Shown: positions 2,399 through 45,276 of the stretch, one piece after another
How the letters are laid out: each line of letters starts with the position of its first letter
How positions within the stretch are numbered: position 1 is the stretch's first letter
Assembly (NCBI GenBank): GCA_002070955.1
Contig: MWEK01000012.1
Location: 35,514-99,513, forward strand
Origin: Planctomycetes bacterium ADurb.Bin069
GTDB lineage: Bacteria; Planctomycetota; UBA8108; UBA8890; UBA8898
Direction: 5' to 3'
Length of the DNA stretch: 64,000 bases
Program-made: the position numbers and the translations under genes
Notes under the pieces: generated by a model
Database searches by the model: none
Told to the model about the DNA's origin: nothing
What the model saw: the letters and a program-made list of their open reading frames with translations, nothing else

Positions 2399-2477
2399 CC
2401 TCGAAAGCGCGCTGAATCCGCCGCTCCCGGAGCCTTTGGAGCCTGTTTTTCCCCTGCGAGAGGAAAGGAGACCGTCC

Positions 2478-7004
<4,527 letters not shown>

Positions 7005-7012
7005 TCAGCGGT

Positions 7013-7453
7013 TCAACGGGAGCCGTGGCCGGCCGGAGCGTGGAGTCCGGCGGCGGGCTCGGGCTCGCCGAGCAGCTTCCTGACCTCGACACGGATCTGC
7101 TCGGGGCGAACGGGCTTGTCGAGCACCTTGTCGGCCTTGATCCACGACCGCGCCTCGGGCGACCGGGCGCCGAAGGAAACGCCCGTCGTGGCCGTCACCG
7201 CCGTGAGCATGATCACCGGCGTCTCGGGATAGAGCTTCTTCAGGTGGTGGCAGAGGACGAAACCGGAGTCCTTCTCCTCCATCATGAGGTCGAGGATCGC
7301 CAGGTCGGGCCGCACCGTGAGGAGGGTCTCCTCGGCCTCGACTTGGCCGCCGGCGCTGACGATGTCGTAGCCCCGCCCCTGCAGGGCGAGAGTGAGCTGG
7401 TCGACGATGTCCGGATCGTCGTCCACAATCAGGATCTTCTTTTTTGCGTTCAT
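7013..7453 (-). CDS. Stand-alone response regulator receiver (CheY-like, no output domain)
   Basis: MNAKKKILIVDDDPDIV...LAILDLMM...PVIMLTA...K shows receiver-domain Asp and Lys motifs. The gene sits between hydA and the nfn-like gene on the same strand. Confidence 0.85.
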   Translation of the reverse strand: MNAKKKILIVDDDPDIVDQLTLALQGRGYDIVSAGGQVEAEETLLTVRPDLAILDLMMEEKDSGFVLCHHLKKLYPETPVIMLTAVTATTGVSFGARSPEARSWIKADKVLDKPVRPEQIRVEVRKLLGEPEPAAGLHAPAGHGSR

Positions 7454-7505
7454 CGTTGTCCTTGCGGGTTCCTGTGCGTTGCGGGTTCACGCGCCGAAGC
7501 GTCCA

Positions 7506-9227
7506 TCATAGCAACACATCGCGCTGGGCGTAATGCGTGTGCAGCAAGCGGTGGCTCGTCTCGCTGAGCGGCTTGCCGAGAAACTCCTCGTAGAGCCGGA
7601 GGACCCACTTGTTGCGGTGGCTCACCCGGAGCTGCTCCTCCCGGTCGATCTTGTACAGCGCCTGCATGCGGGACTTGACCGCCTCCAGGTCGGCCTTGAG
7701 CGGCTGGCCGCCGCCGTTGATGCACCCGCCGGGACAGGTCATGACCTCGATGAAGTGCAGGTCTTTCCGGCCCGCCTTGATCTGATCGAGGAGCTTGCGC
7801 GCCTGCCCGAGGCCGCTCACGACGGCGGCGCCCAACTCCAGCCCGTCGATGTTGAGGCGCACCTCCTTGCAGCCGTGCATGCCGCGGATCGGCTGGATCT
7901 TGAGATCGGGGTACTCCTTGCCCGTGATCAGGAAGTAGGCCGAGCGCACCGCCGCCTCCATGACGCCGCCGCTGGCGCCGAAGATCTTGCCCGCGCTGGA
8001 GCGCTCCCCGAAGGGCGTGTCGGCTCCCTCGGGCTCCATGGCCGCCAGGTCGATGCCGAACATGCGCAGGAGTTGGCCGAGCTCGCGGGTGGTCAGGACG
8101 TAGTCGACGTCGGGGATGTGGCCGGGGGCCATCTCGGGCCGCGAGCACTCGAATTTCTTGGCCGTGCAGGGCATGATGGAAACGCTGACGATCTTGGCCG
8201 GATCGACGGCCTCGCGCTGGGCGAAGAAGCTCTTGATGACCGCGCCCATCATCTGCTGCGGGCTCTTACAGGTGGAGATGTTGGGGATGAACTCGGGGTA
8301 GAACTCCTCGACGAACTTGATCCAGCCCGGCGAGCAGCTCGTCAACATGGGCAGCACGCCGCCCGTCTTGATGCGGTGGACGAGCTCGGAGCCCTCCTCC
8401 ATGATGGTCAGGTCCGCCGCGAAGGAGGTGTCGAAGACGCGGTCGAAGCCCACGCGCCTCAAGGCGGCGACCATTTTGCCGTCCAGATCGGTGCCGGGCT
8501 TGACGCCGAACTCCTCGGCGAGGCTCACCGACACGGCGGGGGCGTGCTGGGCGACGACCAGCTTGTCGGGGTCCGACAGGGCCGCGACGACGTCGGCCAG
8601 CGAACTCGTTTCGCTGAGGGCGCCCGTCGGGCAGACGAGGACGCATTGGCCGCAGTTGACGCAGCTTGAGAGGTTGAGCCCCGTGTCGAAGGCGGTGCCG
8701 ATGAAGGCGCGCGAGCCGCGGTTGACGAAGTCGATGGCGGAGATGCCCTGGACCTCCTCGCAGACGCGCACGCAGCGCCCGCAGAGGATGCATTTGTCCG
8801 GGTCGCGCAGAATCGAGGGGCTGGAGACGTCCAGCTCCCTGGTCGTCTTCTTCCCGCGGTACAGGCGCTGGCGGATTCCCATCTCCATGGACAGAGTCTG
8901 GAGATCGCACTTGCCGTTGCGCGCGCAGTACAGGCAGTCATCGGGGTGGTTGCTCAAGAGCAATTCCACGTTGGTCCGGCGCGCCTCGAGCACCTTGGGC
9001 GAACGGGTCTTGATCTTCATGCCGGGGGCGACGGGAAAGGAGCAGGCCGGCGTCAACGTCGGGGAGCCCTCGACCTCCACCACGCAGAGGCGGCAGGCGC
9101 CGCTGGGCGGCAGCCCCTCCATGTGGCAGAGCGTGGGCACCTGGATGCCCTCGCGCTTGAGCGCCGTCAGAATCGTCTCGCCCTCGTTGGCCTGGATCGT
9201 ACGACCGTCAGCTTCGAACGTGATCAT
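7506..9227 (-). CDS. hydA: [FeFe]-hydrogenase catalytic subunit HydA (multimeric/bifurcating type: N-terminal 2Fe-2S, 4Fe-4S ferredoxin domains and H-cluster domain)
   Basis: H-cluster motifs TSCSPGWIKFVE, MPCTAKKFE and MTCPGGCINGGGQP. N-terminal CxxC plant-ferredoxin-like fold and CxxCxxCxxxCP 4Fe-4S motifs. ATG at 9227. Confidence 0.9.
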   Translation of the reverse strand: MITFEADGRTIQANEGETILTALKREGIQVPTLCHMEGLPPSGACRLCVVEVEGSPTLTPACSFPVAPGMKIKTRSPKVLEARRTNVELLLSNHPDDCLYCARNGKCDLQTLSMEMGIRQRLYRGKKTTRELDVSSPSILRDPDKCILCGRCVRVCEEVQGISAIDFVNRGSRAFIGTAFDTGLNLSSCVNCGQCVLVCPTGALSETSSLADVVAALSDPDKLVVAQHAPAVSVSLAEEFGVKPGTDLDGKMVAALRRVGFDRVFDTSFAADLTIMEEGSELVHRIKTGGVLPMLTSCSPGWIKFVEEFYPEFIPNISTCKSPQQMMGAVIKSFFAQREAVDPAKIVSVSIMPCTAKKFECSRPEMAPGHIPDVDYVLTTRELGQLLRMFGIDLAAMEPEGADTPFGERSSAGKIFGASGGVMEAAVRSAYFLITGKEYPDLKIQPIRGMHGCKEVRLNIDGLELGAAVVSGLGQARKLLDQIKAGRKDLHFIEVMTCPGGCINGGGQPLKADLEAVKSRMQALYKIDREEQLRVSHRNKWVLRLYEEFLGKPLSETSHRLLHTHYAQRDVLL

Positions 9228-9256
9228 GTTGCACCTTTATCCTTTTTCTTTCGGCC

Positions 9257-12200
9257 TCACTCCGGTTGCGTGAAATCGAGATCGCACCGCAGGCACCGGC
9301 GCGCCTCGCACACGGCGGCCTCCTCGCTCACGGCCAGCTCGACCTCGGCGAAGCACTTCGCGCGTTTGGCCACGGGCAGCTCCGGCGCGCGCACGCGCCC
9401 CGCGGGCTCGGCATCCTCGTCCGGCAGTTGGACCGGCTCGATGTACACCGTGGGCAGCGTCACCTTCGGCAGGGTCCTCATGAGCTTGCCCTTGAGGAAC
9501 CGGTCGATCATGAGGGCCGCGTTCTTGCCCGCCGCGATGGCCGCGACGACGGTGCTCGGGCCGGTGACCATGTCGCCGCCGGCGAACACGCCCGGCCGGT
9601 CCGTGGCGTAGGACTCGGGGTTGACCGCGACGGTGTTCCACTTCGTCTTTCTGAGGCCGTCGAGCCCCTCGGTTTCGGCCTCCTCGCTGATGGCCGCAAT
9701 GAGGGTGTCGAGCTCCACCTCGAACTCGGAGCCCGGCACCGGCACGGGCTTGGCGCGGCCGGAGGCATCGCGCTCGCCGAGGCGGTTGCGGATGAGCCGC
9801 AGGCCGGTCAGGGCGCCGTTCTTGGAGAGCACCGCCACCGGCGCCACCAATTCCTCGATTTTGATGCCTTCCTTGAGGGCCCCCTCGATTTCCTCGGCGT
9901 AGGCCGGCATCTCCTGGCGCGTGCGGCGGTAGAAGACCGTGACGCTCGTAACGCCCTTCTCCCTGAAGGCCACGCGGGCGGCATCGATGGCGGAGTTGCC
10001 GCCGCCGACAATGCCGACCCGCCCCTTGGCGGTCTCCTTGCCGTGGAGGTTGTAGTCCTTGAGGAAGGTCACGCCGGGCAGGACGCCCTTGACATCCTCG
10101 CCGGGCACTCCGAGCTTCTTGCTCCGGTGCGCGCCGAGGGCCAGGTACACCGCCTTGTAGCCCTCCTTGAACAGGCCGTCGACCGTCACGTCGCGGCCCA
10201 GCGCCGCGCCGTACTTGATCTCGACGTTCTGGTTGAGAAGGGCCTCGATCTCCTTGTTGAGCGTTTGGCGGGGCAGGCGGTAGGCGGGAATGGCCGCGAC
10301 CAGCATCCCCCCCGCCTTGGCCTCGCGCTCGAAGACCGTGACCTTGTTTCCCAGGAGCGACAGATAGTGGGCGGCCGCGAGGCCCGAGGGGCCGGCGCCG
10401 ACCACCGCGACCTTGGGCGCGTTCTCGGCGGCCGGAATGGCGACCGGCGCCCCGACGGAAGGATCGACGCGGTCGACGACGAAACGCTTCAGCGTGCGAA
10501 TCGCGATGGGCTCGCCGCCGGTTTGACCCGCGCGGCAGGTGCGCTCGCAGGGGTGGTGGCAGACGCGGGCGCAGGCCGACGGGAAGGGGTTCGCGGCCCG
10601 GATGGCGCGGTAGGCGTCCTGGTACTCGCCGCGGGAAATATGGGCGACGTAACGCCAGACCTCGGTGCCCACCGGGCAGCCGTTCTGGCACGGCGCGCCG
10701 ACCAGCTCCTTGCAAGCGCCGGCCGGGCAGCTCCGGTCGAAGATATGCGCCTCGTACTCGTCGCGGAACCACTTCAGCGTGCTGAGCACCGGGTTGGGCG
10801 CGGTCTGTCCCAGGCCGCAGAGGCTCGTCGTCTTGATCGTCTCGCCGAGCTGCTGCAGGTACATGATGCCCTGGACGCGCAGGAGGGCGTCGATGTCCTC
10901 CTCCCGCTTACGGGGGCGGCACACGGCTTGGAGGATTTCCAGCATGCGCTTCGTGCCCTCGCGGCACGGGATGCACTTGCCGCAGCTCTCGCTCTGGATG
11001 AACTCCATGAAGAACTTGGCGAAGTCGACCATGCAGGTGCCCTCGTCGACGACGACCATGCCGCCCGAACCCATGATCGTGCCGAACTCCTTGAGGGCCT
11101 CGTAGTCCGTCGGGAGGTCCAGATGCGCTTCGGGGACGCAGCCGCCCGAGGGGCCGCCGATCTGAACGGCCTTGCACTTGCGGTTGTTGGGGATCCCGCC
11201 GCCCGCCTCGAAGACGACGGTGCGCAGCGTCGTGCCCATGGGCACCTCGACCAGGCCGGTGCGCCTGACCATGCCCGAGAGCGCGAACACCTTCGTGCCC
11301 TTGCTGCCCTTGGTTCCCAGGGCCGAGTACCACTCGGCGCCGTGGTGCAGGATCAGCGGGAGGTTCGCCAGGGTCTCGACGTTGTTGATGACGGTGGGCT
11401 TGCCGAAGAGGCCCTTGACCGCCGGGAAGGGCGGGCGGGGCCGAGGCATGCCGCGGCGCCCCTCGATGGAATGGATCAGCGCGGTTTCCTCGCCGCAGAC
11501 GAAGGCGCCGGCGCCCATCTTGAGCACGATGTCCAGATCGTTGCCGGTGTCGAAGATGTTCCGGCCCAGGAGGCCGCAGGCGCGGGCCTGGGCGATGGCG
11601 TCGGTCAAGCGCTTGATCGCGAGGGGATACTCGGCGCGGATGTAAATGTACGCCTTGGTGGCGCCGAAGGCGTAGGCGGCGATGATCATGCCCTCCAGGA
11701 GGCGATGGGGATCGCTCTCGCCGACGGCCCGGTCCATGAAGGCGCCGGGGTCGCCCTCGTCCGCGTTGCAGATGAGGTATTTTTGATCACCGACCGCCTG
11801 GCGCGCGAACTTCCACTTCCTCCCCGTGGGGAAGCCGCCGCCGCCGCGGCCGCGCAGCCCGCTGGCCTCGACGCAGTTGCACACGTCCTCCGGCGTCATT
11901 GTCTTGAGGGCCTTGGTCGCGGCCGAGTAGCCGCCCCAGGCGATGTACTCATCGATGCTGCTCGGATCGATGATGCCGCTGGCCGCCAAGACGACGCGGT
12001 ACTGGGGCCGCAGGAACGAGTGGGCCTCGAGGGCCGGGACGCCGTCCCAAGCTTTGGCGCCGACGTTCCGGAACTGTCCGATGACGCCGTTGCCCGCGGG
12101 AATCACGCCTTTGCCGAGGACCGCGGCCAGGAGATCGGGAACCTTCTCGGCGGTGACTCCGCCGAAGCTCACGCGCGTCCGGCCGGGCAGGTGGATATCG

Positions 12201-12532
12201 ACGATGGGTTCCTCGGAGCACAGGCCGATGCAGCCGGTCTCGAGGACCTGCGCGTCGCTTTTGTGCGCCGCCACCCATTCCTTGATCGCCGCGAGGGTCT
12301 TGCCCGCGCCGGCGCCCAGGCCGCAAGTGCCCGCGCCCACGAAGACGACGGGCGTCGCGAGCGTTTCGCGGCGCAGCGCGGCGAGCAGTTCCGCGATCTT
12401 CCCGGGGTCTCCGGTGCGCGCGGCCGCGAAAGAGCCCGCCTTGAGCCAGCCCAGGAGATCCGGCGACGGCGCCGGCGGCTCGGCCCAGCATTTACCCGGA
12501 GACACCGGACGAACGAAATCACCTAGGCGCAT
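9257..12532 (-). CDS. hydB: HydB/NuoF-like flavoprotein subunit (NuoE-like Trx-like 2Fe-2S N-terminus, FMN/NADH site, 4Fe-4S clusters) fused to a C-terminal GltD-like (glutamate synthase small chain/NfnB-like) FAD/NAD(P)H domain
   Basis: ATG at 12532 with GAAAAGGAGG 7 nt upstream. NuoF-like motifs are GLRGRGGGGFPTGRKW and ESCGKCIPCREGT. The residues beyond about 590 (CQNGCPVG...[14 protein letters not shown]...VFAGGDMVTGPSTV) are GltD-like. Confidence 0.85.
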   Translation of the reverse strand: MRLGDFVRPVSPGKCWAEPPAPSPDLLGWLKAGSFAAARTGDPGKIAELLAALRRETLATPVVFVGAGTCGLGAGAGKTLAAIKEWVAAHKSDAQVLETGCIGLCSEEPIVDIHLPGRTRVSFGGVTAEKVPDLLAAVLGKGVIPAGNGVIGQFRNVGAKAWDGVPALEAHSFLRPQYRVVLAASGIIDPSSIDEYIAWGGYSAATKALKTMTPEDVCNCVEASGLRGRGGGGFPTGRKWKFARQAVGDQKYLICNADEGDPGAFMDRAVGESDPHRLLEGMIIAAYAFGATKAYIYIRAEYPLAIKRLTDAIAQARACGLLGRNIFDTGNDLDIVLKMGAGAFVCGEETALIHSIEGRRGMPRPRPPFPAVKGLFGKPTVINNVETLANLPLILHHGAEWYSALGTKGSKGTKVFALSGMVRRTGLVEVPMGTTLRTVVFEAGGGIPNNRKCKAVQIGGPSGGCVPEAHLDLPTDYEALKEFGTIMGSGGMVVVDEGTCMVDFAKFFMEFIQSESCGKCIPCREGTKRMLEILQAVCRPRKREEDIDALLRVQGIMYLQQLGETIKTTSLCGLGQTAPNPVLSTLKWFRDEYEAHIFDRSCPAGACKELVGAPCQNGCPVGTEVWRYVAHISRGEYQDAYRAIRAANPFPSACARVCHHPCERTCRAGQTGGEPIAIRTLKRFVVDRVDPSVGAPVAIPAAENAPKVAVVGAGPSGLAAAHYLSLLGNKVTVFEREAKAGGMLVAAIPAYRLPRQTLNKEIEALLNQNVEIKYGAALGRDVTVDGLFKEGYKAVYLALGAHRSKKLGVPGEDVKGVLPGVTFLKDYNLHGKETAKGRVGIVGGGNSAIDAARVAFREKGVTSVTVFYRRTRQEMPAYAEEIEGALKEGIKIEELVAPVAVLSKNGALTGLRLIRNRLGERDASGRAKPVPVPGSEFEVELDTLIAAISEEAETEGLDGLRKTKWNTVAVNPESYATDRPGVFAGGDMVTGPSTVVAAIAAGKNAALMIDRFLKGKLMRTLPKVTLPTVYIEPVQLPDEDAEPAGRVRAPELPVAKRAKCFAEVELAVSEEAAVCEARRCLRCDLDFTQPE

Positions 12533-13001
12533 TGACGGCCTCCTTTTCACGGCAGCTCTGAATGATCTGCGCCAGCTTGCGCGGCGACACTTTGGCGTAG
12601 AATTCCCCGTTGACGTTGACGACGGGCGCCAAACCGCAGGCGCCCATGCAGGCGACGACCTCCAGGCTGAACATCCGGTCGCGGGAGGTCTGGCCGGGGC
12701 TGAGCTTGAGCTGCTTCATGACGGTCTGCAGCACCTTGTCCGAGCCCTTGACGTGGCAGGCCGTGCCGCGACACACCATGAAGTGGTACTTGCCCTTGGG
12801 CTGGAAGCGGAACTGGTTGTAGAAGGTCGCCACGCCGTAGATCTTGCTGGCTGGGAGCTTGAGGTGCTTGCTGATTTGGATGACCGCCTCCCGCGACAGG
12901 TATCCCTCGGCTTCCTGCACCTCCTGCAGGATCGGGATAAGCGCGTCGCGCGAGGCGCCCTGATGCTGCGTCAGGATCCTTTCAACGGTTTGGGCGCTCA
13001 T
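12519..13001 (-). CDS. hydC: HydC/NuoE-like thioredoxin-fold [2Fe-2S] subunit of multimeric [FeFe]-hydrogenase
   Basis: The translation ...MVCRGTACHVKGSDKVL...VACMGACGLAPVVNVNG matches the NuoE/HoxE 2Fe-2S family. The ATG at 13001 overlaps the rex stop codon (ATGA). Confidence 0.85.
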   Translation of the reverse strand: MSAQTVERILTQHQGASRDALIPILQEVQEAEGYLSREAVIQISKHLKLPASKIYGVATFYNQFRFQPKGKYHFMVCRGTACHVKGSDKVLQTVMKQLKLSPGQTSRDRMFSLEVVACMGACGLAPVVNVNGEFYAKVSPRKLAQIIQSCREKEAVNAPR

Positions 13002-13666
13002 GCGTGTTTCCTTTCCATCTGCTGTCCCCGGCGCGCGAAGAACGCGACCTTCTCGAGGGACATGGCCAGATCAATATCCTCGACGAAGACGTGGTCTGGA
13101 ACGCGCAGCGTCACCGGGGCGAAATTGAGAATGCCGCGCACGCCGGCATCGACGAGCAGGTCGGCCGTCGCCTGGGCGGCGGCCGCGGGGACCGTCAGCA
13201 TGGCGACCTCGATGCGGGCGGCGGCGGCCACCGTGCGGAGATCGGCGACGGGATAGCAGCGGCAGCCGAAGGTGACGCAGTTGGTTTTCGCAGAATCGAT
13301 GTCGAAGGTCGCGACGACGGCCAGGCGGGACCGGCGGCCGGCGAAGAAGCTCAGAATGGCGCGCCCGAGGTTGCCCAGGCCGACGAGCGCCACGTTCTGG
13401 GTGCCGGGGCGGTAGAGGAATTCCTCGATTCCGGCGAGGAGCTCCCGCCGGTCGTAGCCGCGGTTGGGGCTGCCCGCGCAGCCGACGAGCATGAGATCGC
13501 GGCGCACCTGCGCCGAGGAGACGCCGCACATGGCGCCGAGCTCATAAGAGTATATGAACCGTTTTTGGTGTTCGTGGGCGCCCGAGAGGCGTTTTCGATA
13601 GAGAATCAGACGGCTGACCGTCCGCTCCGAGATTGTGCGCTCGGATCCGCCCTGTTGCTTCTTCAT
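12998..13666 (-). CDS. rex: Redox-sensing transcriptional repressor Rex (NADH/NAD+ sensor)
   Basis: N-terminal winged helix (RLILYRKRL...) and Rossmann fold (VALVGLGNLGRAIL) typical of Rex. First gene of the hydCBA operon. Confidence 0.85.
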   Translation of the reverse strand: MKKQQGGSERTISERTVSRLILYRKRLSGAHEHQKRFIYSYELGAMCGVSSAQVRRDLMLVGCAGSPNRGYDRRELLAGIEEFLYRPGTQNVALVGLGNLGRAILSFFAGRRSRLAVVATFDIDSAKTNCVTFGCRCYPVADLRTVAAAARIEVAMLTVPAAAAQATADLLVDAGVRGILNFAPVTLRVPDHVFVEDIDLAMSLEKVAFFARRGQQMERKHA

Positions 13667-13691
13667 GATCTAATTCGTTACACGCGTAGCG

Positions 13692-13709
13692 CTGTGAAAT
13701 ATCTCACGT
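13692..13709. promoter_or_regulatory. Putative degenerate Rex operator (cTGTGAA-ATAT-cTCACgt)
   Basis: Compared with the canonical Rex box TTGTGAAnnnnTTCACAA, the first half-site is perfect and the second has two mismatches. It lies 26 nt upstream of the minus-strand rex start. Confidence 0.4.
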
Positions 13710-13808
13710 ATTATGGCGCATCCCTCGGCGGTTGTCAAGGTGGTCGTAAGGCGGCTCCTTGGCATGATCGTTGCGGGGAACTTGACGCCGGGTTGTCTTG
13801 ACGTTAAG

Positions 13809-13826
13809 CTGTGAATGGTTTCACAA
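13809..13826. promoter_or_regulatory. Putative Rex operator (cTGTGAA-tggt-TTCACAA), near-perfect inverted repeat
   Basis: 17/18 match to TTGTGAAnnnnTTCACAA. It is 44 nt upstream of the plus-strand rex paralog start and within the shared divergent promoter region. Confidence 0.6.
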
Positions 13827-13869
13827 TGTGATTGGCTTTGCAAGGCTCCCGGGAGCTTCATGGTCACCG

Positions 13870-14514
13870 ATGCCGCCTTCTGAACGGACAATCGGCCGCC
13901 TGAGCCTGTACCGCCGCCTGCTCAAACAGGCCGCCGCCGCGGGACACGAGCACGTGTACTCCCACGAGCTCGGCGCGCGGGCCGGAGCGACGGCTTGCCA
14001 GGTCAGGCGCGACATCATGGGGCTTGGCTGCGCTGGAAGCCCGAGCCGGGGGTACAAGGTGAAGACGCTGCTCGACCGGATCGAATTTTACCTCGATGCG
14101 CCCGTGGTCGAGCGCGTCGCGCTGGTCGGCGTCGGGAATCTGGGCCGGGCGATTCTGTCGTTTTTTCAGCGCCGCCGGCCGAAGCTCGAGATCACGGCGG
14201 CGTTCGACAGCGACCCGTGGAAGACAAACCGCGTCGTCCAGGGCGTGCGCTGCCACGCCATGGCCGAATTGGAGCCGGTGGTGAGGGAGCAGGGCATCAG
14301 GCTCGCCGTTCTGACCGTGCCCGCCGCGGCGGCGCAGGAGGCGGCCGACGCCCTGGTGGCGGCGGGGATCACGGGGATCCTGAGCTTCGCGCCGGCGCCC
14401 CTGCGCGTGCCGCTCGGCGTTTTCGTCGAGGACATGGATTTGGCGATGTCCCTGGAGAAAGTGGCGTACTTTGCCCGGCGGCACGTTCGGGCGCCGCGGC
14501 GGGGCGGGAAGTGA
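13870..14514 (+). CDS. rex: Second Rex-family redox-sensing repressor (paralog), divergent from the first
   Basis: MPPSERTIGRLSLYRRLL...VALVGVGNLGRAILSF... is about 55-60% identical by eye to the rex at 12998..13666. ATG at 13870. Confidence 0.8.
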   Translation: MPPSERTIGRLSLYRRLLKQAAAAGHEHVYSHELGARAGATACQVRRDIMGLGCAGSPSRGYKVKTLLDRIEFYLDAPVVERVALVGVGNLGRAILSFFQRRRPKLEITAAFDSDPWKTNRVVQGVRCHAMAELEPVVREQGIRLAVLTVPAAAAQEAADALVAAGITGILSFAPAPLRVPLGVFVEDMDLAMSLEKVAYFARRHVRAPRRGGK

Positions 14515-14524
14515 GGGCCCTCCG

Positions 14525-16531
14525 ATGAAATGCGCGGGCGACATCCAGCTCGTACGGACGATCAAGGAGCGCTGCCGCATCTGCTTCACCTGCGTGCGGG
14601 AATGCCCCGCCAAGGCCATCAGGATCGTCGAAGGCCAGGCCGAGGTGGTGCCCGAGCGCTGCATCGGGTGCGGCAACTGCATGCGGGTGTGCAGCCAGAA
14701 CGCCAAGCAGGTGCTCGACGGGAAGCCGGACACGGCCGCGCTGCTAGCCTCGGGCGCGCCCGTCGCGGCCCTGGTCGCCCCGAGTTTTCCGGCGGAGTTC
14801 GTCGAGTGCGGGTGGCGCGAGTTCGTGGGCATGTTGCGCGCGCTGGGCTTCGCCTTCGTCAACGAGGTCGCTTTCGGCGCCGATATCGTCGCCGAACGCT
14901 ACCGGCGCCTGCTCGCCGAGCATGACGGGAAGCGCTACATTGCCACGACCTGTCCGGCGATCATCTCCTTCGTGGAGCAGTACCACCCCGAGCTGGTCAA
15001 GTTCCTGGCGCCGGTGGTCTCGCCCATGGTGGCGGAGGCGCGGGTGCTGCGCAGCATCCACGGCGACGGGGTTAAGCAGGTCTTCATCGGCCCCTGCATC
15101 GCCAAGAAGGGCGAGGCGGCCAGCGAGAACGTTCCGGACGAGGTCGATGCCGCCCTGACCTTTCAGGAGCTCCGGCAGATGTTCGCCGAGGCCGGCATCA
15201 CGCCGGAAAACGTGCGGCCGAGCGATTTCGACCCGCCGCGCGCCGGTCTCGGGGCGCTCTTCCCCTTGAGCCGCGGCTTGCTCCAGACCGCGGGGCTCGA
15301 CGAGGACCTGCTCACGGGCCACGTGGTCGTGACGGGCGGACGGCAGAACTTCGTCCAGGCCCTGCGCGAGTTCGAGAAGGGCGACCTCAACACGCGGCTC
15401 CTGGAGATTCTGGCCTGCGAAGGCTGCGTGATGGGGCCCGGCGTCACGAACGATACGCCGCTTCTGACCCGGCGGGCCAACGTCAGCCGCTACGTGCGCG
15501 AATGCCACGCGACGCTGGACCTGGCGCGCTTCCGGGCGGACCTGGACCGATGCGAGAAAATCGATTTCACGCGGGGGTTCAAGGTCTACGATCAGCGCAT
15601 GCCGGTGCCGCCCGAGGAGGAGATCAGGAATGTGCTGGAGCGCATGGGCAAGGAGGAGCCCGCCGACGAGCTGAACTGCGGCGCCTGCGGCTACGACACC
15701 TGCCGCGAGCACGCCGTGGCGATCATCGAGGGGCTCGCCGAGCACGAGATGTGCCTGCCGCATTCCATCGAGCGGCTGCACAAGACGGTGAAAGACCTGG
15801 CCGCTTCGAATCGACAGCTCGCCTCGACCCAGGAGGCGCTGCTCAACTCCGAGCGCCTCGCGAGCATGGGGCAGCTCGCCGCCGGCATCGCCCACGAGGT
15901 CAACAACCCCCTGGGCGTGGTGCTGATGTTCGCGCATCTGCTCCGCGAGCAGCACGCCAAGAACCCGGCGCTTGCCCAAGACCTGGCCCTGATCGTCGAG
16001 CAGACCGATCGCTGCAAGAAGATCGTGGCGGGCCTGCTCAATTTCGCGCGCCAGACCAAGGTTCTCAGGCAGCCCTTCGATGTGCGCGAGCTCGTCAACC
16101 GCACGCTTCAGACCATGCCGCCCCCCGCGGGCGTCAAGGTGCGCGTCGAGCATGGAATCGAAGACCCGGTCGCCGAGATCGACCGCGATCAGATCGCGCA
16201 GGTCCTCGTCAATCTGATCACGAACGGGTACCAGGCCATGGCGGGCGGGGGCGTGTTGAGCGTGCGCACCCGCGGCGATGCCGACACGGCGGTCATCGAG
16301 GTGGCCGACACCGGCGTGGGCATCCCCAAGGAGAACCTGACGAAGATCTTCGAGCCGTTCTTCACGACCAAGCAGATCGGCACGGGCACGGGCCTGGGGC
16401 TCGCGGTGAGCTACGGGATCACCAAGATGCATAACGGCGGCATCGCCGTGGAATCCAACATCGACCCCGCCCGGGGGCCGACCGGAAGCACGTTCACCGT
16501 CACGCTGCCGCGCCGGGGGGCCGACGCTTAG
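14525..16531 (+). CDS. Putative sensory [FeFe]-hydrogenase (HydS-like, group C type) fused to a histidine kinase (HisKA + HATPase_c)
   Basis: N-terminal 2x 4Fe-4S ([23 protein letters not shown]). H-cluster-like motifs [22 protein letters not shown] and [12 protein letters not shown] Cys-rich linker CGACGYDTC is followed by the H-box (IAHEVNNPL) and N/G1/G2 boxes (LITNGYQA...DTGVGI...[11 protein letters not shown]). Confidence 0.85.
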
Positions 16532-16548
16532 CGCGGAAGGAGAGATTC

Positions 16549-17697
16549 GTGGGAGCAACGACACTGAAAATCCTGGTGGTCGATGACGAGCCTGGGATGC
16601 AGATCGGCGTCGAGCGCGCCCTCAGGGACTACGCCGTGCATGTCGCCGAGGTGAACGAGGATGTGCGCTTCGAGGTCGAAACCGCCGGGAGCGGCGAGGA
16701 TGCGCTGGCGCGCATCGAGAACGTCCCGGCGCCGCCGCACCTCCTGCTGCTGGATCACATGCTGCCCGGCATGACCGGCCTGGATGTGCTCGACCGCCTG
16801 GCGGGCAGGGATCTGGAGCTCCTCACCATCATGATCACGGCGTATGCGTCGCTGGAGACCGCCGTGACGGCGACGAAGCGCGGGGCCTACGATTTTCTGG
16901 CCAAGCCCTTCACGCCGGCCGAGCTCAAGAACGTGATCCAGAAGGCGGCGGCCCGGCTGCTCCTGGCGCGCCAGGCGCGCGCGCTGGCCCGCGAGCGGCA
17001 CCAGGTGCGCTTCCAGTTCATATCGGTGCTGGCGCACGAGCTCAAGGCGCCCCTGGCCGCCGTCCAGGGCTACCTGGCCATCATGCGCGACCGCGCCGCC
17101 GGCGATACGATCGACGATTACGACGAGGCGATCGGGCGCTGCCTGGCCCGGGTGGAGGGGATGCGCAAGCTGATCCTCGATCTGCTCGATCTCACGAAGA
17201 TCGAATCCGGCCAGCGCGCGCGGGAGATCGCCCCGCTGGATCTCTGCGACGCCGTGCGCCACGCGCTGGACACCTACCGGCCCGAGGCGGATGCGCGGCG
17301 GATCACGCTGGAGTTCGCGCCCGCGGGGCCGGTGCCGATGGAAGCCGACCGGAGCGAGATCGAGGTGATTCTCAACAACCTGCTCTCCAACGCCGTCAAG
17401 TACAACCGCGACGGCGGGAGCGTGACCGTGGAGTGCGGGGCCGAGGACGGCACCGTGACGATCGGCGTCGCCGACACGGGCATCGGCATGGGGCCTGAGG
17501 ATGTCAAGAAGCTGTTCGGCGATTTCGTGCGCATCAAGAACGAAAAGACCCGCAAGATCTCCGGCAGCGGCCTGGGCCTGGCGATTCTCAAGAAACTGGC
17601 GCTCTTGAACGGGGGCGACGTGAAGGTGGAGAGCACTCCTGATGTCGGGACGCGCTTCACCGTGACGCTCAACCAGCGTCAGACAAGCAAGGAATAG
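16549..17697 (+). CDS. Hybrid sensor: N-terminal receiver domain fused to histidine kinase (REC-HisKA-HATPase_c)
   Basis: GTG start at 16549 with GGAAGGAGAG upstream. REC motif (LKILVVDDEP...LLLLDHMLPG), H-box (LAHELKAPL) and ATPase boxes (LLSNAVKYN...DTGIGM...GSGLGLAI). Confidence 0.85.
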   Translation: MGATTLKILVVDDEPGMQIGVERALRDYAVHVAEVNEDVRFEVETAGSGEDALARIENVPAPPHLLLLDHMLPGMTGLDVLDRLAGRDLELLTIMITAYASLETAVTATKRGAYDFLAKPFTPAELKNVIQKAAARLLLARQARALARERHQVRFQFISVLAHELKAPLAAVQGYLAIMRDRAAGDTIDDYDEAIGRCLARVEGMRKLILDLLDLTKIESGQRAREIAPLDLCDAVRHALDTYRPEADARRITLEFAPAGPVPMEADRSEIEVILNNLLSNAVKYNRDGGSVTVECGAEDGTVTIGVADTGIGMGPEDVKKLFGDFVRIKNEKTRKISGSGLGLAILKKLALLNGGDVKVESTPDVGTRFTVTLNQRQTSKE

Positions 17698-17737
17698 ACG
17701 CGCGCCCGGGCGCGCGAAGCGGAAGCGAGGTGCATCC

Positions 17738-19162
17738 ATGTGTGCGCTGCCGGCCATGCGCGTGAGCGCGGGCTGCATCGATTTCATCAACGAGGCGCGT
17801 TTCAACGCGCTGCTGGCGCCGAGCCGCCCCGACCCGGGCCGCGTGCGCGAAATCATCGACAAGAGTCTCGCGAAGGAGGCCCTGTCGCTGGAGGAGACGG
17901 CGGTCCTGCTGGGGGCGGAGGATCCCGGCCAGATCGAGGCGATCTTCCAGGCCGCGCGGACTCTCAAGGAGCGGGTCTACGGGAACCGCATCGTGCTCTT
18001 CGCGCCGCTTTACATCGGCAACCATTGCGTCAACGACTGCGCCTATTGCGGCTTCAAGCGCTCGAACAAGGAAGCCGTTCGGCGGACGCTGCGCGGCGGG
18101 GAGCTCGAGGCCCAGATCCGGGCGCTCCAGCGCGCCGGGCACAAGCGCCTGATTCTGGTCTTCGGCGAGCACCCCGCCTACGATGCGGAGTCCATCGCCG
18201 AGGCCGTGCGCACGGCCTATCGCATCAAGGAAGGCCGCGGCGAGATCCGGCGCGTCAACATCAACGCGGCGCCCCTGGATGTGGAGGGCTTCCGCGCCGT
18301 CAAGGCGGCCGGCATCGGGACGTACCAGATCTTCATGGAAACGTACCACCGCGCCACCTACGCCCGCCTCCACCCGGCCTACACGCGCAAGGGGGACTAC
18401 CTGTACCGCCTGGATGCGTTGAATCGGGCCCTCGAGGCCGGTTGCGACGATGTGGGCATCGGCGCCCTTTTCGGACTCTACGACTGGAAGTTCGAGGTGC
18501 TCGGGCTCGTCGCCCACGCGCTCCATCTCCAGGAGCGCTTCCGCGTGGGGCCCCACACGATCAGCTTCCCGCGCATCAAACCCGCCTCGGGCGTGTGCCT
18601 CGACGATTGCCACGACGTGAGCGACGAGGAGTTCGCCCGCGTCGTGGCGATTCTGCGCCTGGCGGTGCCCTATACGGGCCTCATCCTGACGGCGCGCGAG
18701 CCCGCGGCGCTCAGGCGCCGCCTCATGGCGTTCGGCGTGTCGCAGATCGACGCGGGCACGCGCCTTGAGATCGGCGGCTACACCGAAGCCGGCGATGCGC
18801 AGGTCATGGAGCGCGAGCAGTTCAGCCTGGGGGACGTGCGCTCGTTGGACGAGGTCATCTTCGAGCTGGTCGAGGACGGCTACGTGCCGAGCTTCTGCAC
18901 GGCGTGCTACCGGCTCGGCCGCACGGGGGAGCACTTCATGGAGTTCGCGATTCCCGGCTTCATCAAGCGCTTCTGCACCCCGAACGCGCTGACGACCTTC
19001 AAGGAATACCTGATCGACTACGCCTCGCCGCGCACGCGCGCGGCCGGCGAGCGCCGCATCGCGGCGGAGCTGGCCCAGTTGCCCGACGATCCGCAGAAAG
19101 CGGCGCTCATGCGCCGGCTGGAGGCGATCGAAACCGGCACGGCGCGGGATCTGTACTGCTGA
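17738..19162 (+). CDS. hydG: [FeFe]-hydrogenase maturase HydG (radical SAM tyrosine lyase)
   Basis: Radical SAM CNDCAYC motif. C-terminal auxiliary-cluster motif FCTACYRLGRTGEHFME is characteristic of HydG. ThiH-like overall. Confidence 0.9.
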   Translation: MCALPAMRVSAGCIDFINEARFNALLAPSRPDPGRVREIIDKSLAKEALSLEETAVLLGAEDPGQIEAIFQAARTLKERVYGNRIVLFAPLYIGNHCVNDCAYCGFKRSNKEAVRRTLRGGELEAQIRALQRAGHKRLILVFGEHPAYDAESIAEAVRTAYRIKEGRGEIRRVNINAAPLDVEGFRAVKAAGIGTYQIFMETYHRATYARLHPAYTRKGDYLYRLDALNRALEAGCDDVGIGALFGLYDWKFEVLGLVAHALHLQERFRVGPHTISFPRIKPASGVCLDDCHDVSDEEFARVVAILRLAVPYTGLILTAREPAALRRRLMAFGVSQIDAGTRLEIGGYTEAGDAQVMEREQFSLGDVRSLDEVIFELVEDGYVPSFCTACYRLGRTGEHFMEFAIPGFIKRFCTPNALTTFKEYLIDYASPRTRAAGERRIAAELAQLPDDPQKAALMRRLEAIETGTARDLYC

Positions 19163-19202: not shown

Positions 19203-21197
19203 CTATTCGATGGCGCGGATCGCGGCGTCCGCCGACCATTTGGCGCGGGGTATCTGCGCGATTTTTCGGAGGGCGGGCAGCGCCGGCGCGGCGGGCTTGC
19301 CGATGGCGCCCAGCGCCGCGGCGACCGAACGCAGCACATGGACCTGCTGGCCCTCCGCCGAGGCGGCGTCGATCAACGCCGGGACCGCCGGCGCGGCCTC
19401 CCGGCCGATCGCCGCGAGGGCGTTGGCCGCCATCATCCGAACGCCGGCGTCGGAGTCCTGGAGCGCGGCCGCCAGCATGTCCAGCGCCGCGACGCTCTCC
19501 TGCCCCCTGTCGCGCAGCGCCAAGGCCGCCAAGCCGCGGGTGATCGGATCGGGATCCGACAGGGCGCGGCCGATGTCGGCAATGCTCCCCGCGGGCCTGC
19601 GCGGTTCGGTCACCGCCGCGGCGGCCGCCCACGCCTCCGGGCCCGTCTTGGCGAGAATGATGCAGTCGACGCCGAGGTTGTAGCCCCCGGACGCCTCGCG
19701 CTTGCCGAGGCACACGAACGTCAGGGTGTGCCGGCCCTTCGCGAGGCTGGGCCAGCCGACCTGGTAGGCGAGGCCGACGTAGGTCTCGGGAGCGTATCCG
19801 TCGAACTGCGTCCGCTCGATCACGTCGGCGCCCGGCTCGTGCTCGAGCTGCGCCGCGCCGGGGGCCTTGCCGTCGAGAAGCACGGTGTAGATCCCGTAGT
19901 CGCCCGCCTGGGCGACTTCGGTGTACACCTCGTAGACGCCGTCCTCGGGCGCGTCGAAGGGGATTTCGAGCTTGGCGCCCGGGCCCTCGGCGGCGAAGAA
20001 GATCACATCCTTGGACCAGAAAAGCTCGGGGATGAGGGACGCCTCGCCGCCCGCGGCCTTGACCTCGGCGAGGGATTGCTCCACCTCGATTTGCGCGGCG
20101 TTGCCGTGGGGCAGCCGCGCGGAGCCGTAGGGCACGGGGGGAAGATCCCGCGCGATGCCTTCTTGGTACCAGAAGGCGACGCTCGCGATGCAATCGGTGC
20201 GCTCGCCGAAGCACGATTTGACTGAGCCGTCGGCGTTGTAAGTCCAGCCCCGGTGCTCCATCTCCGCCTTGAGCGCGGACGTGAAGGGAATGGGATCGGT
20301 GAGGTGCCAGCGGTAGGCCGTCATTCGCGCGCCGAGCCCGGTGCCCTCGGCCACCGTGACGCCGTACAGGGGTCCGTCGTTGACATGCAGGCCCCAGGCG
20401 TCGTTGAAGTAGTCCTCGCTGCCCGTGCCCACGATCTCGGGGCGCCGCCCGTCCACCCAGAAGAAGTCATCGCCTTCCCCGAACCAGCCGGCCTCGGCCT
20501 GGACGACGGACATCACGGTGCCCACGTAATGCCCCCGGCCTTTGACGTTCAGGAATTCGTACCTGGAGCCATCCGCCGGTGCGGGCAGCGCCTGGCGGTA
20601 CCACGCGTGGAAGTAGCGCGTGTCCCGCGGGAGCGACGGCACTTTCTGCCAGTCGACGTGGTAGTAGAGCATGGTCACGCGGCGGCGGCCCTCGTTGGTG
20701 ATGGTGATCTTGCACGACTTGTGGAACGGCATCGGCCAGTAGCAGTTGCGGGCGCGGCCCGCGGAGCTGTTCCGAACCATGAGGGACTCGACCTCGGCCT
20801 CGACGCCGTTGCCGACGGCGAAGAAATCGCCCACCGGCGCGTCGACGCTGGGGGTGGGGCTCCCGTCGTAGTACACGCGCAGGCGCAGGAGCCGCGGCCA
20901 GCCGTACTCGTTGTCCGCGATGGTCAGCCAGATGTGGGTGACGACGCCGGGGCCTGCCAGGTCGGCGAGGACCGTCGTCTCGCCGGGGATCGGGCGCGCG
21001 CTGTCGTCGTTCGAGTCCCAGTCGGGATTGTTCGACGAGGCGCGCATCGCCGTGAAGTCCTTCGGCCGGGTCAGGCCGTAAGGATCGGGGTAGGCGGGGG
21101 CCGCGCGGTCGCTGCAGCCGGACGCCGCGGCGATGAAGAGCGCGGCGGGGAACCACGAGAGCAGAAGCTGTGTTTTCATGGGTTCAGTATACCTCAT
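19203..21197 (-). CDS. Secreted lipoprotein: DUF2961 (GH172-like) domain fused to C-terminal HEAT/PBS-lyase-like repeats
   Basis: Possible lipobox (LFIAAASGC). DUF2961 blocks GPGVVTHIWLT...GTGSEDYFNDAWG. The C-terminal GLAALALRDRG...DSDAGVRMMAANALAAIG run is HEAT-like. The exact start (21197 or 21179) is uncertain. Confidence 0.7.
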   Translation of the reverse strand: MRYTEPMKTQLLLSWFPAALFIAAASGCSDRAAPAYPDPYGLTRPKDFTAMRASSNNPDWDSNDDSARPIPGETTVLADLAGPGVVTHIWLTIADNEYGWPRLLRLRVYYDGSPTPSVDAPVGDFFAVGNGVEAEVESLMVRNSSAGRARNCYWPMPFHKSCKITITNEGRRRVTMLYYHVDWQKVPSLPRDTRYFHAWYRQALPAPADGSRYEFLNVKGRGHYVGTVMSVVQAEAGWFGEGDDFFWVDGRRPEIVGTGSEDYFNDAWGLHVNDGPLYGVTVAEGTGLGARMTAYRWHLTDPIPFTSALKAEMEHRGWTYNADGSVKSCFGERTDCIASVAFWYQEGIARDLPPVPYGSARLPHGNAAQIEVEQSLAEVKAAGGEASLIPELFWSKDVIFFAAEGPGAKLEIPFDAPEDGVYEVYTEVAQAGDYGIYTVLLDGKAPGAAQLEHEPGADVIERTQFDGYAPETYVGLAYQVGWPSLAKGRHTLTFVCLGKREASGGYNLGVDCIILAKTGPEAWAAAAAVTEPRRPAGSIADIGRALSDPDPITRGLAALALRDRGQESVAALDMLAAALQDSDAGVRMMAANALAAIGREAAPAVPALIDAASAEGQQVHVLRSVAAALGAIGKPAAPALPALRKIAQIPRAKWSADAAIRAIE

Positions 21198-24086: not shown

Positions 24087-25334
24087 ATGAAACAAACACC
24101 CAAGGGGCTCCGGCTCCACATCGGTATTTTCGGCCGGCGCAACGTCGGCAAGTCCTCGCTCCTGAACGCGCTGACGCGGCAGACGGTTTCGATCGTGTCC
24201 GACGTCGCCGGAACCACCACCGATCCGGTGGAAAAGCCCATGGAGCTTCCGCCGATCGGCCCGGTTCAGTTCATCGACACGGCGGGCATCGACGACCCGA
24301 GCGCGGTGGGAGAGCAGAGGGTCGCCCGCACGCGCCAAGTGTTCGATCGGACCGATGTGGGCATCCTGGTGGCCGAGGCGGCCGTATGGGGGCCTTACGA
24401 GGACATGATCCTCGCCGAGCTGGCGCGGCGCCGCGTTCCCGCGGTGGTGGTGTTCAACAAGGCCGACCGCGGCGCGCCGTCCCCGGAGGCGTCCGGGGCG
24501 GCGGCCAAGGCCGGCGCGCGGACCGTCACGGCCATCGCCACGCGGGGCGAGGGAATCCTCGACCTCAGGAACGCCCTCATCGAGGCCGCGCCCGAGGAGT
24601 ACATCGACGCGCCCCCGCTCATCGCCGATCTGGTCGCCCCGGGGCAGTGTATCGTGCTCGTTGTGCCCATCGACAAGGAAGCCCCCAAAGGCCGCCTCAT
24701 CCTGCCGCAGGTGCAGACCATCCGGGAGATCCTCGATTCCGATGCGTACTGCCTGGTCGTCAAGGAGCGCGAGCTTGCCGACGCGCTCGGGCGCCTGGCG
24801 CGGCCTCCCAGTCTGGTCGTCACCGATTCGCAGGCGTTCGCCAAGGTCGCCGCCGACACGCCGGCGGAGATTCCCCTCACGTCCTTTTCGATCCTCTTCG
24901 CCCGGGCCAAAGGGGATCTGGGCGAGTTCGCGCGGGGCGCCATGTCCATCGATTCCCTGAAGCCCGGCGACGCCGTTCTCATCGCCGAATCCTGCGCCCA
25001 TCACCCGATCGGGGACGACATCGGCCGCGTGAAAATTCCCCGTTGGCTCACGCGCTACGTGGGAGGGGCGCTGCGCTTCACCACGGTCCAGGGGCACGGC
25101 CTGCCCGACGACCTGGCGCAGTACCGCCTCGTCGTCCACTGCGGCGCGTGCATGTGGAATCGCAGGGAGGTGCTCGCGCGCATTATCCGCTGCCGCGACG
25201 CGGGGGTGCCGATCACGAACTACGGGACGGCGATCGCCTATTCCCTCGGCATCTTCGAGCGCGCGCTCGGGCCGTTTCCCGCGGTGCTCGCCGAGTACCG
25301 CGCGGCGCGGGCCGCCGGCGGCAGCCGAGTTTGA
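24087..25334 (+). CDS. hydF: [FeFe]-hydrogenase maturation GTPase HydF
   Basis: P-loop GRRNVGKSSLLNAL. C-terminal cluster-binding motifs ESCAHHP and VVHCGACMWNR are typical of HydF. ATG at 24087 with GGAGGG upstream. Confidence 0.85.
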   Translation: MKQTPKGLRLHIGIFGRRNVGKSSLLNALTRQTVSIVSDVAGTTTDPVEKPMELPPIGPVQFIDTAGIDDPSAVGEQRVARTRQVFDRTDVGILVAEAAVWGPYEDMILAELARRRVPAVVVFNKADRGAPSPEASGAAAKAGARTVTAIATRGEGILDLRNALIEAAPEEYIDAPPLIADLVAPGQCIVLVVPIDKEAPKGRLILPQVQTIREILDSDAYCLVVKERELADALGRLARPPSLVVTDSQAFAKVAADTPAEIPLTSFSILFARAKGDLGEFARGAMSIDSLKPGDAVLIAESCAHHPIGDDIGRVKIPRWLTRYVGGALRFTTVQGHGLPDDLAQYRLVVHCGACMWNRREVLARIIRCRDAGVPITNYGTAIAYSLGIFERALGPFPAVLAEYRAARAAGGSRV

Positions 25335-45148: not shown

Positions 45149-45276
45149 GAGGGCTCCTTGCGGCTTTCAGTGTGCCACGGCGGAGCGGGGTTGTCCACCG
45201 GCCGGGAGGCGCATCCTTGCATCGGGCCCCGCGGAGGGGTACACTCAGGCCTCCGCTCTTACGGGGAAGGAGAAAA

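Follow-up and report, generated by a model that had tools for sequence, protein, structure and literature searches.

Control of fermentative hydrogenases by the redox-sensing repressor Rex is established mainly in the Firmicutes and Thermotogae, and in Thermotoga maritima the gene for Rex 2 (TM1427) adjoins hydABC. In the Clostridia and Thermoanaerobacterales, Rex controls HydABC, hydS/hfs and hydG and also autoregulates (PMC8457756, PMC5886521), and Clostridium thermocellum has two Rex genes, Rex_2471 and Rex_1799 (PMC8457756). Rex and HydS, a putative H2 sensor, have been jointly proposed to control the bifurcating HydABC/Hnd hydrogenases of Ruminococcus albus and Solidesulfovibrio fructosivorans (PMC10084766). 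Here we describe a hydrogenase locus in a 64-kb stretch of DNA (68% G+C) from Planctomycetes bacterium ADurb.Bin069 (contig MWEK01000012.1, positions 35,514–99,513). The whole stretch is referred to as the window and is numbered from its first base; in it two Rex paralogs, RexA and RexB, are encoded back to back, rexA as the first gene of a catalytic hydrogenase operon and rexB as the first gene of a sensory one.

The locus shares several features with the described systems. Boxes of the TTGTGAAnnnnTTCACAA type are found at the promoters of the bifurcating hydrogenase, hfsABCD and hydG under the clostridial and thermoanaerobacterial Rex proteins (C. thermocellum Rex_2471, Caldicellulosiruptor bescii and Thermoanaerobacterium saccharolyticum), and the boxes reported here are alike. 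However, the clostridial-type systems have one global Rex encoded elsewhere in the genome, whereas each of the two window paralogs heads a hydrogenase operon, and the host is a high-GC member of the Planctomycetota. More than one Rex paralog per genome is also seen in C. thermocellum, and the T. maritima structure 5zz5 is named 'Rex 1' in the PDB, but the paralogs of these two organisms are distant in the genome and only ~35% identical. The combination of a putative H2 sensor with Rex over a bifurcating hydrogenase recalls the model for R. albus and S. fructosivorans, and histidine-kinase-type fusions of HydS that neighbour Rex are on record from Elusimicrobia and Hydrogenedentota. The HydS proteins described so far mostly carry PAS and phosphatase modules, whereas the window sensor is fused to HisKA-HATPase_c domains and is followed by a hybrid kinase. 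Also comparable are single-rex relatives in the Planctomycetes–Verrucomicrobia–Chlamydiae (PVC) group (L006, L007 and L008 in our collection); they have one rex only, which immediately precedes hydC-hydB-hydA and has a Rex box on its own upstream side. A literature search on TM1427/TM0169 and two-Rex organisms returned nothing relevant, and we did not find a conserved back-to-back Rex pair with one promoter-operator unit per paralog described in the literature searched. Rex operators also seem not to have been examined in the Planctomycetota before. Links between Rex, HydABC and HydS have already been described, as have Rex paralogs, and the paired arrangement is a modest conserved twist that overturns nothing known.

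We propose, with a probability of about 0.7, that the two genes are separated by two autoregulated, NADH-relieved Rex repression units that share one bidirectional regulatory region, one unit for each hydrogenase operon. Comparison of sequences shows the identities of the genes, the positions of the predicted promoters and operators, and their conservation. rexA and rexB are transcribed divergently from a gap of 203 nucleotides (nt; 13667..13869), which we footprinted across seven lineages (the window, L003, L004, L020 with L021, L022, L023 and L025). The spacer varies from 203 to ~420 nt and cannot be aligned outside a few conserved islands, and these islands are the promoter hexamers and the boxes. 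The rexA promoter matches the sigma-70 consensus at 11/12 positions and its –35 and –10 hexamers are conserved in all six of the other lineages; the rexB promoter has the form TTGAC(T/G/C)-17-TA(A/G)(A/G)CT in all seven. A different rexB promoter proposed by the scanning tool (TTGACG at 13798 and CACAAT at 13827) is not conserved and was set aside. Each promoter has its own inverted repeat, with Box 2 overlapping the rexB –10 and Box 1 abutting the rexA –10, and both are conserved, each with 14/18 columns invariant across five lineages. The Box 1 orthologues read ACGTGAGATCTTTCACAA, ACGTGACAGTTTTCACAA, ACGTGAGAGTTTTCACAA and TCGTGAGGTTTTTCACAA, and in L025 TTGTGAGAGTTTTCACAG, which is nearer to the consensus and nearly symmetric. 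Those of Box 2 read CTGTGA(A/T)nnnnTTCACA(A/G), and in the two deepest lineages the right half begins differently (AGTCACA in L023, GGTAACA in L025).

Both the near-consensus box and the weaker box of the original prediction, which was made from the window sequence alone, were recovered, but the single shared operator that it placed in the intergenic region is replaced by two separate promoter-operator units, one per gene, conserved in the seven lineages. Box 2 lies ~70 bp upstream of the rexA –35, and the distance between box centres varies with lineage (117, 123, 118 and ~330 bp) with no conserved looping phase, so that a fixed looping or shared-operator geometry is unlikely. Since every box has a conserved promoter to itself and the spacing is variable, we reject both a shared operator and DNA looping between the boxes. 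The layered control or cross-regulation of the catalytic and sensory hydrogenases that the original prediction also suggested is plausible.

Box 2 has a single mismatch to the consensus TTGTGAANNNNTTCACAA and is the only match to it in the 64 kb at up to three mismatches. No match at one mismatch or fewer arose in 100 dinucleotide shuffles, and because the window is 68% G+C an AT-rich palindrome is still less likely to occur by chance. Box 1, which reads CTGTGAAATATCTCACGT on the plus strand, has four mismatches; the window holds ten sites at this level, and Box 1 is not significant by itself. In a matrix scan the two boxes score 28.4 bits (Box 2) and 22.2 bits (Box 1), and the maximum over 200 simulated 64-kb sequences is 21.7; the matrix was built solely from sites in other genomes but these include the orthologous sites, and the test is therefore not fully independent for Box 1. 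The third-best match (15.9 bits, at 55756) lies inside a gene and within the range expected by chance, and we do not regard it as a Rex target.

Features of the Rex-hydrogenase locus (window coordinates)
Feature	Coordinates	Strand	Basis and details
Fusion of NfnA-NfnB type (792 aa) that closes the minus-strand cluster	4572..6950	-	Pfam DHODB_Fe-S_bind, Fer4_20, Pyr_redox_2; PRK12778 at 1049.9 bits, just below the cut-off of 1103
Receiver of response-regulator type, stand-alone (146 aa), within the catalytic operon	7013..7453	-	Pfam Response_reg; NCBIfam matches limited to the receiver domain
hydA, catalytic [FeFe]-hydrogenase subunit	7506..9227	-	Pfam Fe_hyd_lg_C (1e-95), Fe_hyd_SSU; NCBIfam NF040763, 833 bits vs 765
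hydB, NuoF-like flavoprotein fused to a GltD/NfnB-like NAD(P)H domain	9257..12550	-	Open reading frame of 1097 aa (1091 aa as called in L001); Pfam Complex1_51K, NADH_4Fe-4S, Fer4_20, Pyr_redox_2; NCBIfam nuoF_fam and PRK12771
hydC, NuoE-like [2Fe-2S] subunit	12519..13001	-	Pfam 2Fe-2S_thioredx (9.7e-52)
rexA, redox-sensing repressor of the Rex family (222 aa), heading the catalytic hydrogenase operon	12998..13666	-	Open reading frame; PF06971 and PF02629; NF003995
Box 1, predicted rexA operator, directly 3' of the –10	13692..13709	-	Reads ACGTGAGATATTTCACAG in the rexA direction
rexA core promoter (P_rexA): –35 TTGACA (13738..13733), 17 nt, –10 CATAAT (13715..13710)	13710..13738	-	Promoter scan
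rexB core promoter (P_rexB): –35 TTGACG (13782..13787), 17 nt, –10 TAAGCT (13805..13810)	13782..13810	+	Read from the sequence
Box 2, predicted rexB operator CTGTGAATGGTTTCACAA, overlapping the last two –10 bases and the expected transcription start	13809..13826	+	
Possible second, abutting weak box ATGTGATTGGCTTTGCAA	13826..13843	+	4 mismatches; first half-site alone partly conserved
rexB, repressor of the Rex family (214 aa), heading the sensory operon	13870..14514	+	Matches to Pfam, NCBIfam NF003995 and solved structures
hydS-HK, sensory-type [FeFe]-hydrogenase domain fused to a histidine kinase	14525..16531	+	Pfam Fer4, Fe_hyd_lg_C, FeS, HisKA, HATPase_c
Hybrid receiver-histidine kinase	16549..17697	+	Pfam Response_reg, HisKA and HATPase_c
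hydG, radical-SAM maturase of the H-cluster, closing the plus-strand operon	17738..19162	+	TIGR03955, 479 bits vs 312

Two other elements are present in the intergenic region. A half-site (T/C)GTGA abutting Box 2 is kept in five of the seven lineages, and abutting Rex boxes with a 17-bp offset and one shared base are found at L007 1498-1532, L008 5924-5958, L015 1040-1074, L004 5820-5854 and, in the window, at 13809-13843; those of L007, L008 and L015 stand upstream of single rex genes. Abutting boxes upstream of PVC-group rex genes hint at tandem binding of two dimers. In the rexA 5' leader, just upstream of the start, the sequence GTAACGAATT (13669..13681) is invariant in five lineages, with (G)TAACGA kept in the deeper ones. 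A Shine-Dalgarno sequence is not evident in this leader region, and the conserved stretch may have a role in the leader or in translation, or may be a further binding site.

RexA and RexB are 58% identical over 212 aa (BLASTP, E = 1e-72). Both have the N-terminal winged-helix domain Put_DNA-bind_N (PF06971; 2.3e-12 for RexA and 1.3e-12 for RexB, both above the gathering score) and the CoA_binding Rossmann domain (PF02629), and both exceed the NCBIfam Rex model NF003995 (186.9 and 199.3 bits, respectively, against a cut-off of 126) as well as NF003994 and NF003996. RexA is already labelled Rex in the source databases, and the best solved-structure matches of RexB, the only one of the two queried in this way, are Rex proteins, with Bacillus subtilis Rex at the top (5e-34). 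These matches bear out the original prediction that two divergent, genuine Rex paralogs are present, for which an identity of 55-60% had been judged by eye. The linkage of each to its operon also stands: the plus strand reads TCAT at 12998-13001, which is ATGA on the minus strand, so that the rexA TGA stop overlaps the hydC ATG and the two are translationally coupled, as also in the L020 and L021 gene calls, and the rexB stop is 10 nt from the start of hydS-HK, whose domains are confirmed by Pfam.

Residues were mapped onto the T. maritima Rex ternary complex (PMC8836258), in which Arg48, Lys49, Arg60, Gly61 and Tyr64 are base-reading or DNA-contact residues and Tyr100 is the NADH-sensing residue that stacks on the nicotinamide and hydrogen-bonds to the helix-9 Asp in NADH-bound Rex (PMC8836258). 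Both paralogs have the DNA-contact residues, with the Arg-Arg pair of a QVRRD motif and an xRGY wing (Gly/Arg/Gly/Tyr), and have Arg at the Lys49 position, like B. subtilis. The Rossmann fold has a GxGxxG motif in each (GLGNLG in RexA and GVGNLG in RexB), and the Asn, Lys and helix-9 Asp of the NAD(H) pocket are kept, as is the FD motif with the NAD(H)-selecting Asp that binds the adenosine ribose. The last of these leads us to reject the idea, prompted by the GltD-fused HydB, that one paralog senses NADPH. With these motifs in place both paralogs look like working Rex repressors. At a base-facing position of its recognition helix RexB has Cys43 (TACQVRRD), a residue found in 0/124 other sampled family members; it is kept in five RexB orthologues. 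Its replacement by Ala or Ser in deeper RexB-like proteins weakens the notion of a defining redox thiol.

The divergent pair with the same flanking genes is present in L003, L004, L020/L021, L022 and the two deeper lineages L023 and L025, making seven lineages with the window. RexA orthologues are found in L003, L004, L020, L022 and L025, and the RexB orthologues are P0121-P0126. In L023 the RexB-like protein is 69% identical, with a RexA-like N-terminus upstream and hydS downstream, and in L025 it is the RexA-like protein (59% identity) that is followed by hydC, with a RexB-like gene upstream. In relatives further removed (L006 of the Pirellulales, and L007 and L008 of the Verrucomicrobiota) there is one rex, and it immediately precedes hydCBA; in the single-rex relatives L007, L008 and L012-L015 a Rex box is located 25-75 nt upstream of rex-hydCBA. 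L006 has a sensor-kinase gene after hydA in the same direction, in a single operon with hydCBA, and the window layout therefore looks like an operon of this type split in two, with its own rex for each half. A scan of metagenome contigs added short fragments only. The host, a member of the Planctomycetota, is known from metagenomes only and is common in anaerobic digesters (the protein occurs in 277 collection blocks, one with a 1.2-Mb contig, ERZ2648042 NODE_1).

Each paralog clade is monophyletic (100/100 bootstraps), and the two clades are sisters in 3/100 neighbour-joining bootstraps, so that a recent duplication in place is unsupported; rare residues common to RexA and RexB (Gly40 and Ser102/Phe103, B. 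subtilis numbering) hint toward duplication. To judge from the identities, RexA is evolving faster than RexB, and RexB is consistently nearer to outgroup Rex proteins (55 vs 54, 58 vs 55, 58 vs 51, 48 vs 44 and 35 vs 31% identity for RexB and RexA, respectively).

By analogy with the Rex family, we infer that binding and repression at both boxes are NADH-responsive. Operon A would consist of rexA-hydC-hydB-hydA-receiver-nfnAB-like and operon B of rexB-hydS(histidine kinase)-receiver/kinase-hydG, each transcribed from its own sigma-70-type promoter with its own Rex operator on or just past the –10. A Rex dimer on the –10 and start region, where repressors classically act by steric hindrance, would block RNA polymerase. 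The predicted transcription starts are near 13703 (minus strand) and 13817 (plus strand), with predicted polycistronic units of 4572..13666 and 13870..19162. While the NADH/NAD+ ratio is low, both boxes would be filled by Rex dimers and the two operons, together with their rex genes, would be expressed at a low level; as NADH builds up, NADH-bound Rex would close its DNA-binding domains and leave the DNA, derepressing both operons. Surplus reductant would then be vented as H2, and the sensor kinase would feed back from H2. The near-consensus rexB box and the weaker, asymmetric rexA box probably differ in the strength of repression.

Several observations weigh against this interpretation. The promoter-proximal half of Box 1 (ACGTGAG) is off consensus in a conserved fashion and a further relative, L024, lacks the distal half, so that a function in the promoter or leader, and not Rex binding, may account for part of the conservation of Box 1. 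The NADH-sensing Tyr position is Phe in both paralogs, which keeps the ring and loses the hydroxyl, and the NADH response could be altered as a result; the partner Asp is conserved, and Phe is a minority state at this position in the family (Phe in 23/124, Tyr in 99/124). Finally, the matrix scan of the 64-kb window found no further Rex site above chance, and a wider regulon is thus not supported.

The other explanations of the locus differ mainly in how the two repressors divide their targets. RexB could be a general Rex with a genome-wide regulon and RexA a dedicated, faster-evolving regulator of hydCBA, much like the C. thermocellum pair, in which a global Rex_2471 is accompanied by a divergent second Rex (PMC8457756). 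The closeness of RexB to every outgroup Rex and its better conservation among orthologues (87 and 84% identity, against 84 and 75% for RexA) are as this would predict, but it is RexA, not RexB, that holds the single-rex position directly upstream of hydC, and the lack of any other Rex site in the window speaks against a broad regulon; we consider this reading rather unlikely. It is also rather unlikely, in our judgement, that operator specificity has diverged to the point at which each repressor recognizes a single box, Box 1 for RexA and Box 2 for RexB, forming independent circuits with separate NADH set-points. The paralogs do differ at fixed positions of the DNA-binding domain, some of them in the recognition helix (RexA has Ser-Ala, RexB Ala-Cys and the family Ala-Ala), each forms a fully supported clade, and the proximal half of Box 1 is (C/T)GTGAG in all seven lineages where Box 2 has TGTGA(A/T). 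The base-reading residues (the Arg-Arg pair and the wing Arg-Gly) are nevertheless identical in the two proteins, the distal half TTTCACA(A/G) is common to both boxes, and the RexB Cys is lost in the deeper RexB-like proteins (Ala in L023, Ser in L025).

We consider it very unlikely that RexA and RexB dimerize with each other and that the asymmetric Box 1, with one canonical and one variant half-site, is a heterodimer site. The Box 1 asymmetry is conserved and RexA and RexB hardly differ in their domain-swapped C-terminal helix (VFVEDIDLAMSLEKVAFFARR vs VFVEDMDLAMSLEKVAYFARR), but this helix is conserved throughout the family and therefore says nothing specific about the RexA/RexB pair, and in L025 Box 1 is nearly symmetric. 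That the palindrome is a chance occurrence and one rex copy a decaying duplicate we hold to be extremely improbable: Box 1 taken alone is no better than nine other four-mismatch sites in the window, but both genes are intact with a coding-type G+C content at third codon positions of 0.84 in each, both boxes are conserved in seven lineages in which RexA identity falls to 59%, and Box 2 was unmatched in the shuffles. Two autoregulated repression units, one per operon, thus remain our preferred interpretation. An extension of it, improbable as it stands, is that the paralogs are non-redundant and have diverged in operator preference, NADH threshold or both, so that the NADH/NAD+ ratio at which the H2-sensing apparatus is turned on differs from that for the catalytic hydrogenase; the kinase relay might act through the stand-alone receiver, on a Rex or on the enzyme itself, and so bring the H2 and NADH signals together at one intergenic region.

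The catalytic operon encodes an NAD(P)H-linked [FeFe]-hydrogenase of the HydABC type that is probably electron-bifurcating. HydA, the NuoF-like HydB and the NuoE-like HydC are encoded together, HydB with an extra GltD-like domain, and the nearest solved relatives of HydA are the bifurcating HydA1 proteins 8a6t and 7q4v. The HydA L1 motif is TSCSPGW (residues 296-302) rather than TSCCP and is conserved in L003, L004, L006 and L008; the same motif is present in the solved HydA1 7q4v, and it is a known family trait and not an oddity of this locus. The GltD/NfnB-like fusion of HydB is shared with L003, L004 and L008, and the L006 HydB matches residues 31-617 only. Because HydB has this fusion and a separate NfnA-NfnB-like fusion ends the operon, a link of the hydrogenase to NADP(H) is suggested. 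The stand-alone receiver of the catalytic operon is conserved in L003 and L004.

The rexB operon is predicted to encode an H2-sensing phosphorelay and a maturase, with hydS-HK as the presumed H2 sensor. Its product has the composition of a group C sensory hydrogenase, with Fe_hyd_lg_C (6.4e-46) joined to HisKA and HATPase_c, and its motifs TTCPA, GPCIAKK and ACEGC keep the cluster Cys ligands and lack the proton-relay Cys (L1 being TTCPA). Sensory HydS also lacks this Cys, TmHydS having Ala at the Cys299 position (PMC10055695). Neither operon encodes a DNA-binding response regulator, and the sole other receiver is the stand-alone domain in the catalytic operon. The gene after hydG is in convergent orientation, and hydF is located ~5 kb past hydG (24087..25334, plus strand) with unrelated genes between; hydE was not seen among the window open reading frames examined, and 45172..47031 encodes a B12-binding radical-SAM protein. 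Large GH172-domain proteins are encoded at both ends of the hydrogenase locus (~2268..4577, plus strand, and 19203..21197, minus strand), one of them with HEAT repeats (L001 gene calls). An Rfam scan of the window gave no match.

In these Planctomycetota of anaerobic digesters the logic of Rex is seen in tidy form, with regulator, operator and promoter each present twice and the catalytic enzyme and the presumed H2 sensor each under its own Rex. The single-rex relatives suggest that the splitting of an operon was accompanied by a second copy of the regulator, and the locus is therefore a small natural model in which to study how paralogous repressors that act as homodimers divide up their targets. 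With its defined fragment of ~200 bp, signalling by NADH and by H2 could be taken apart.

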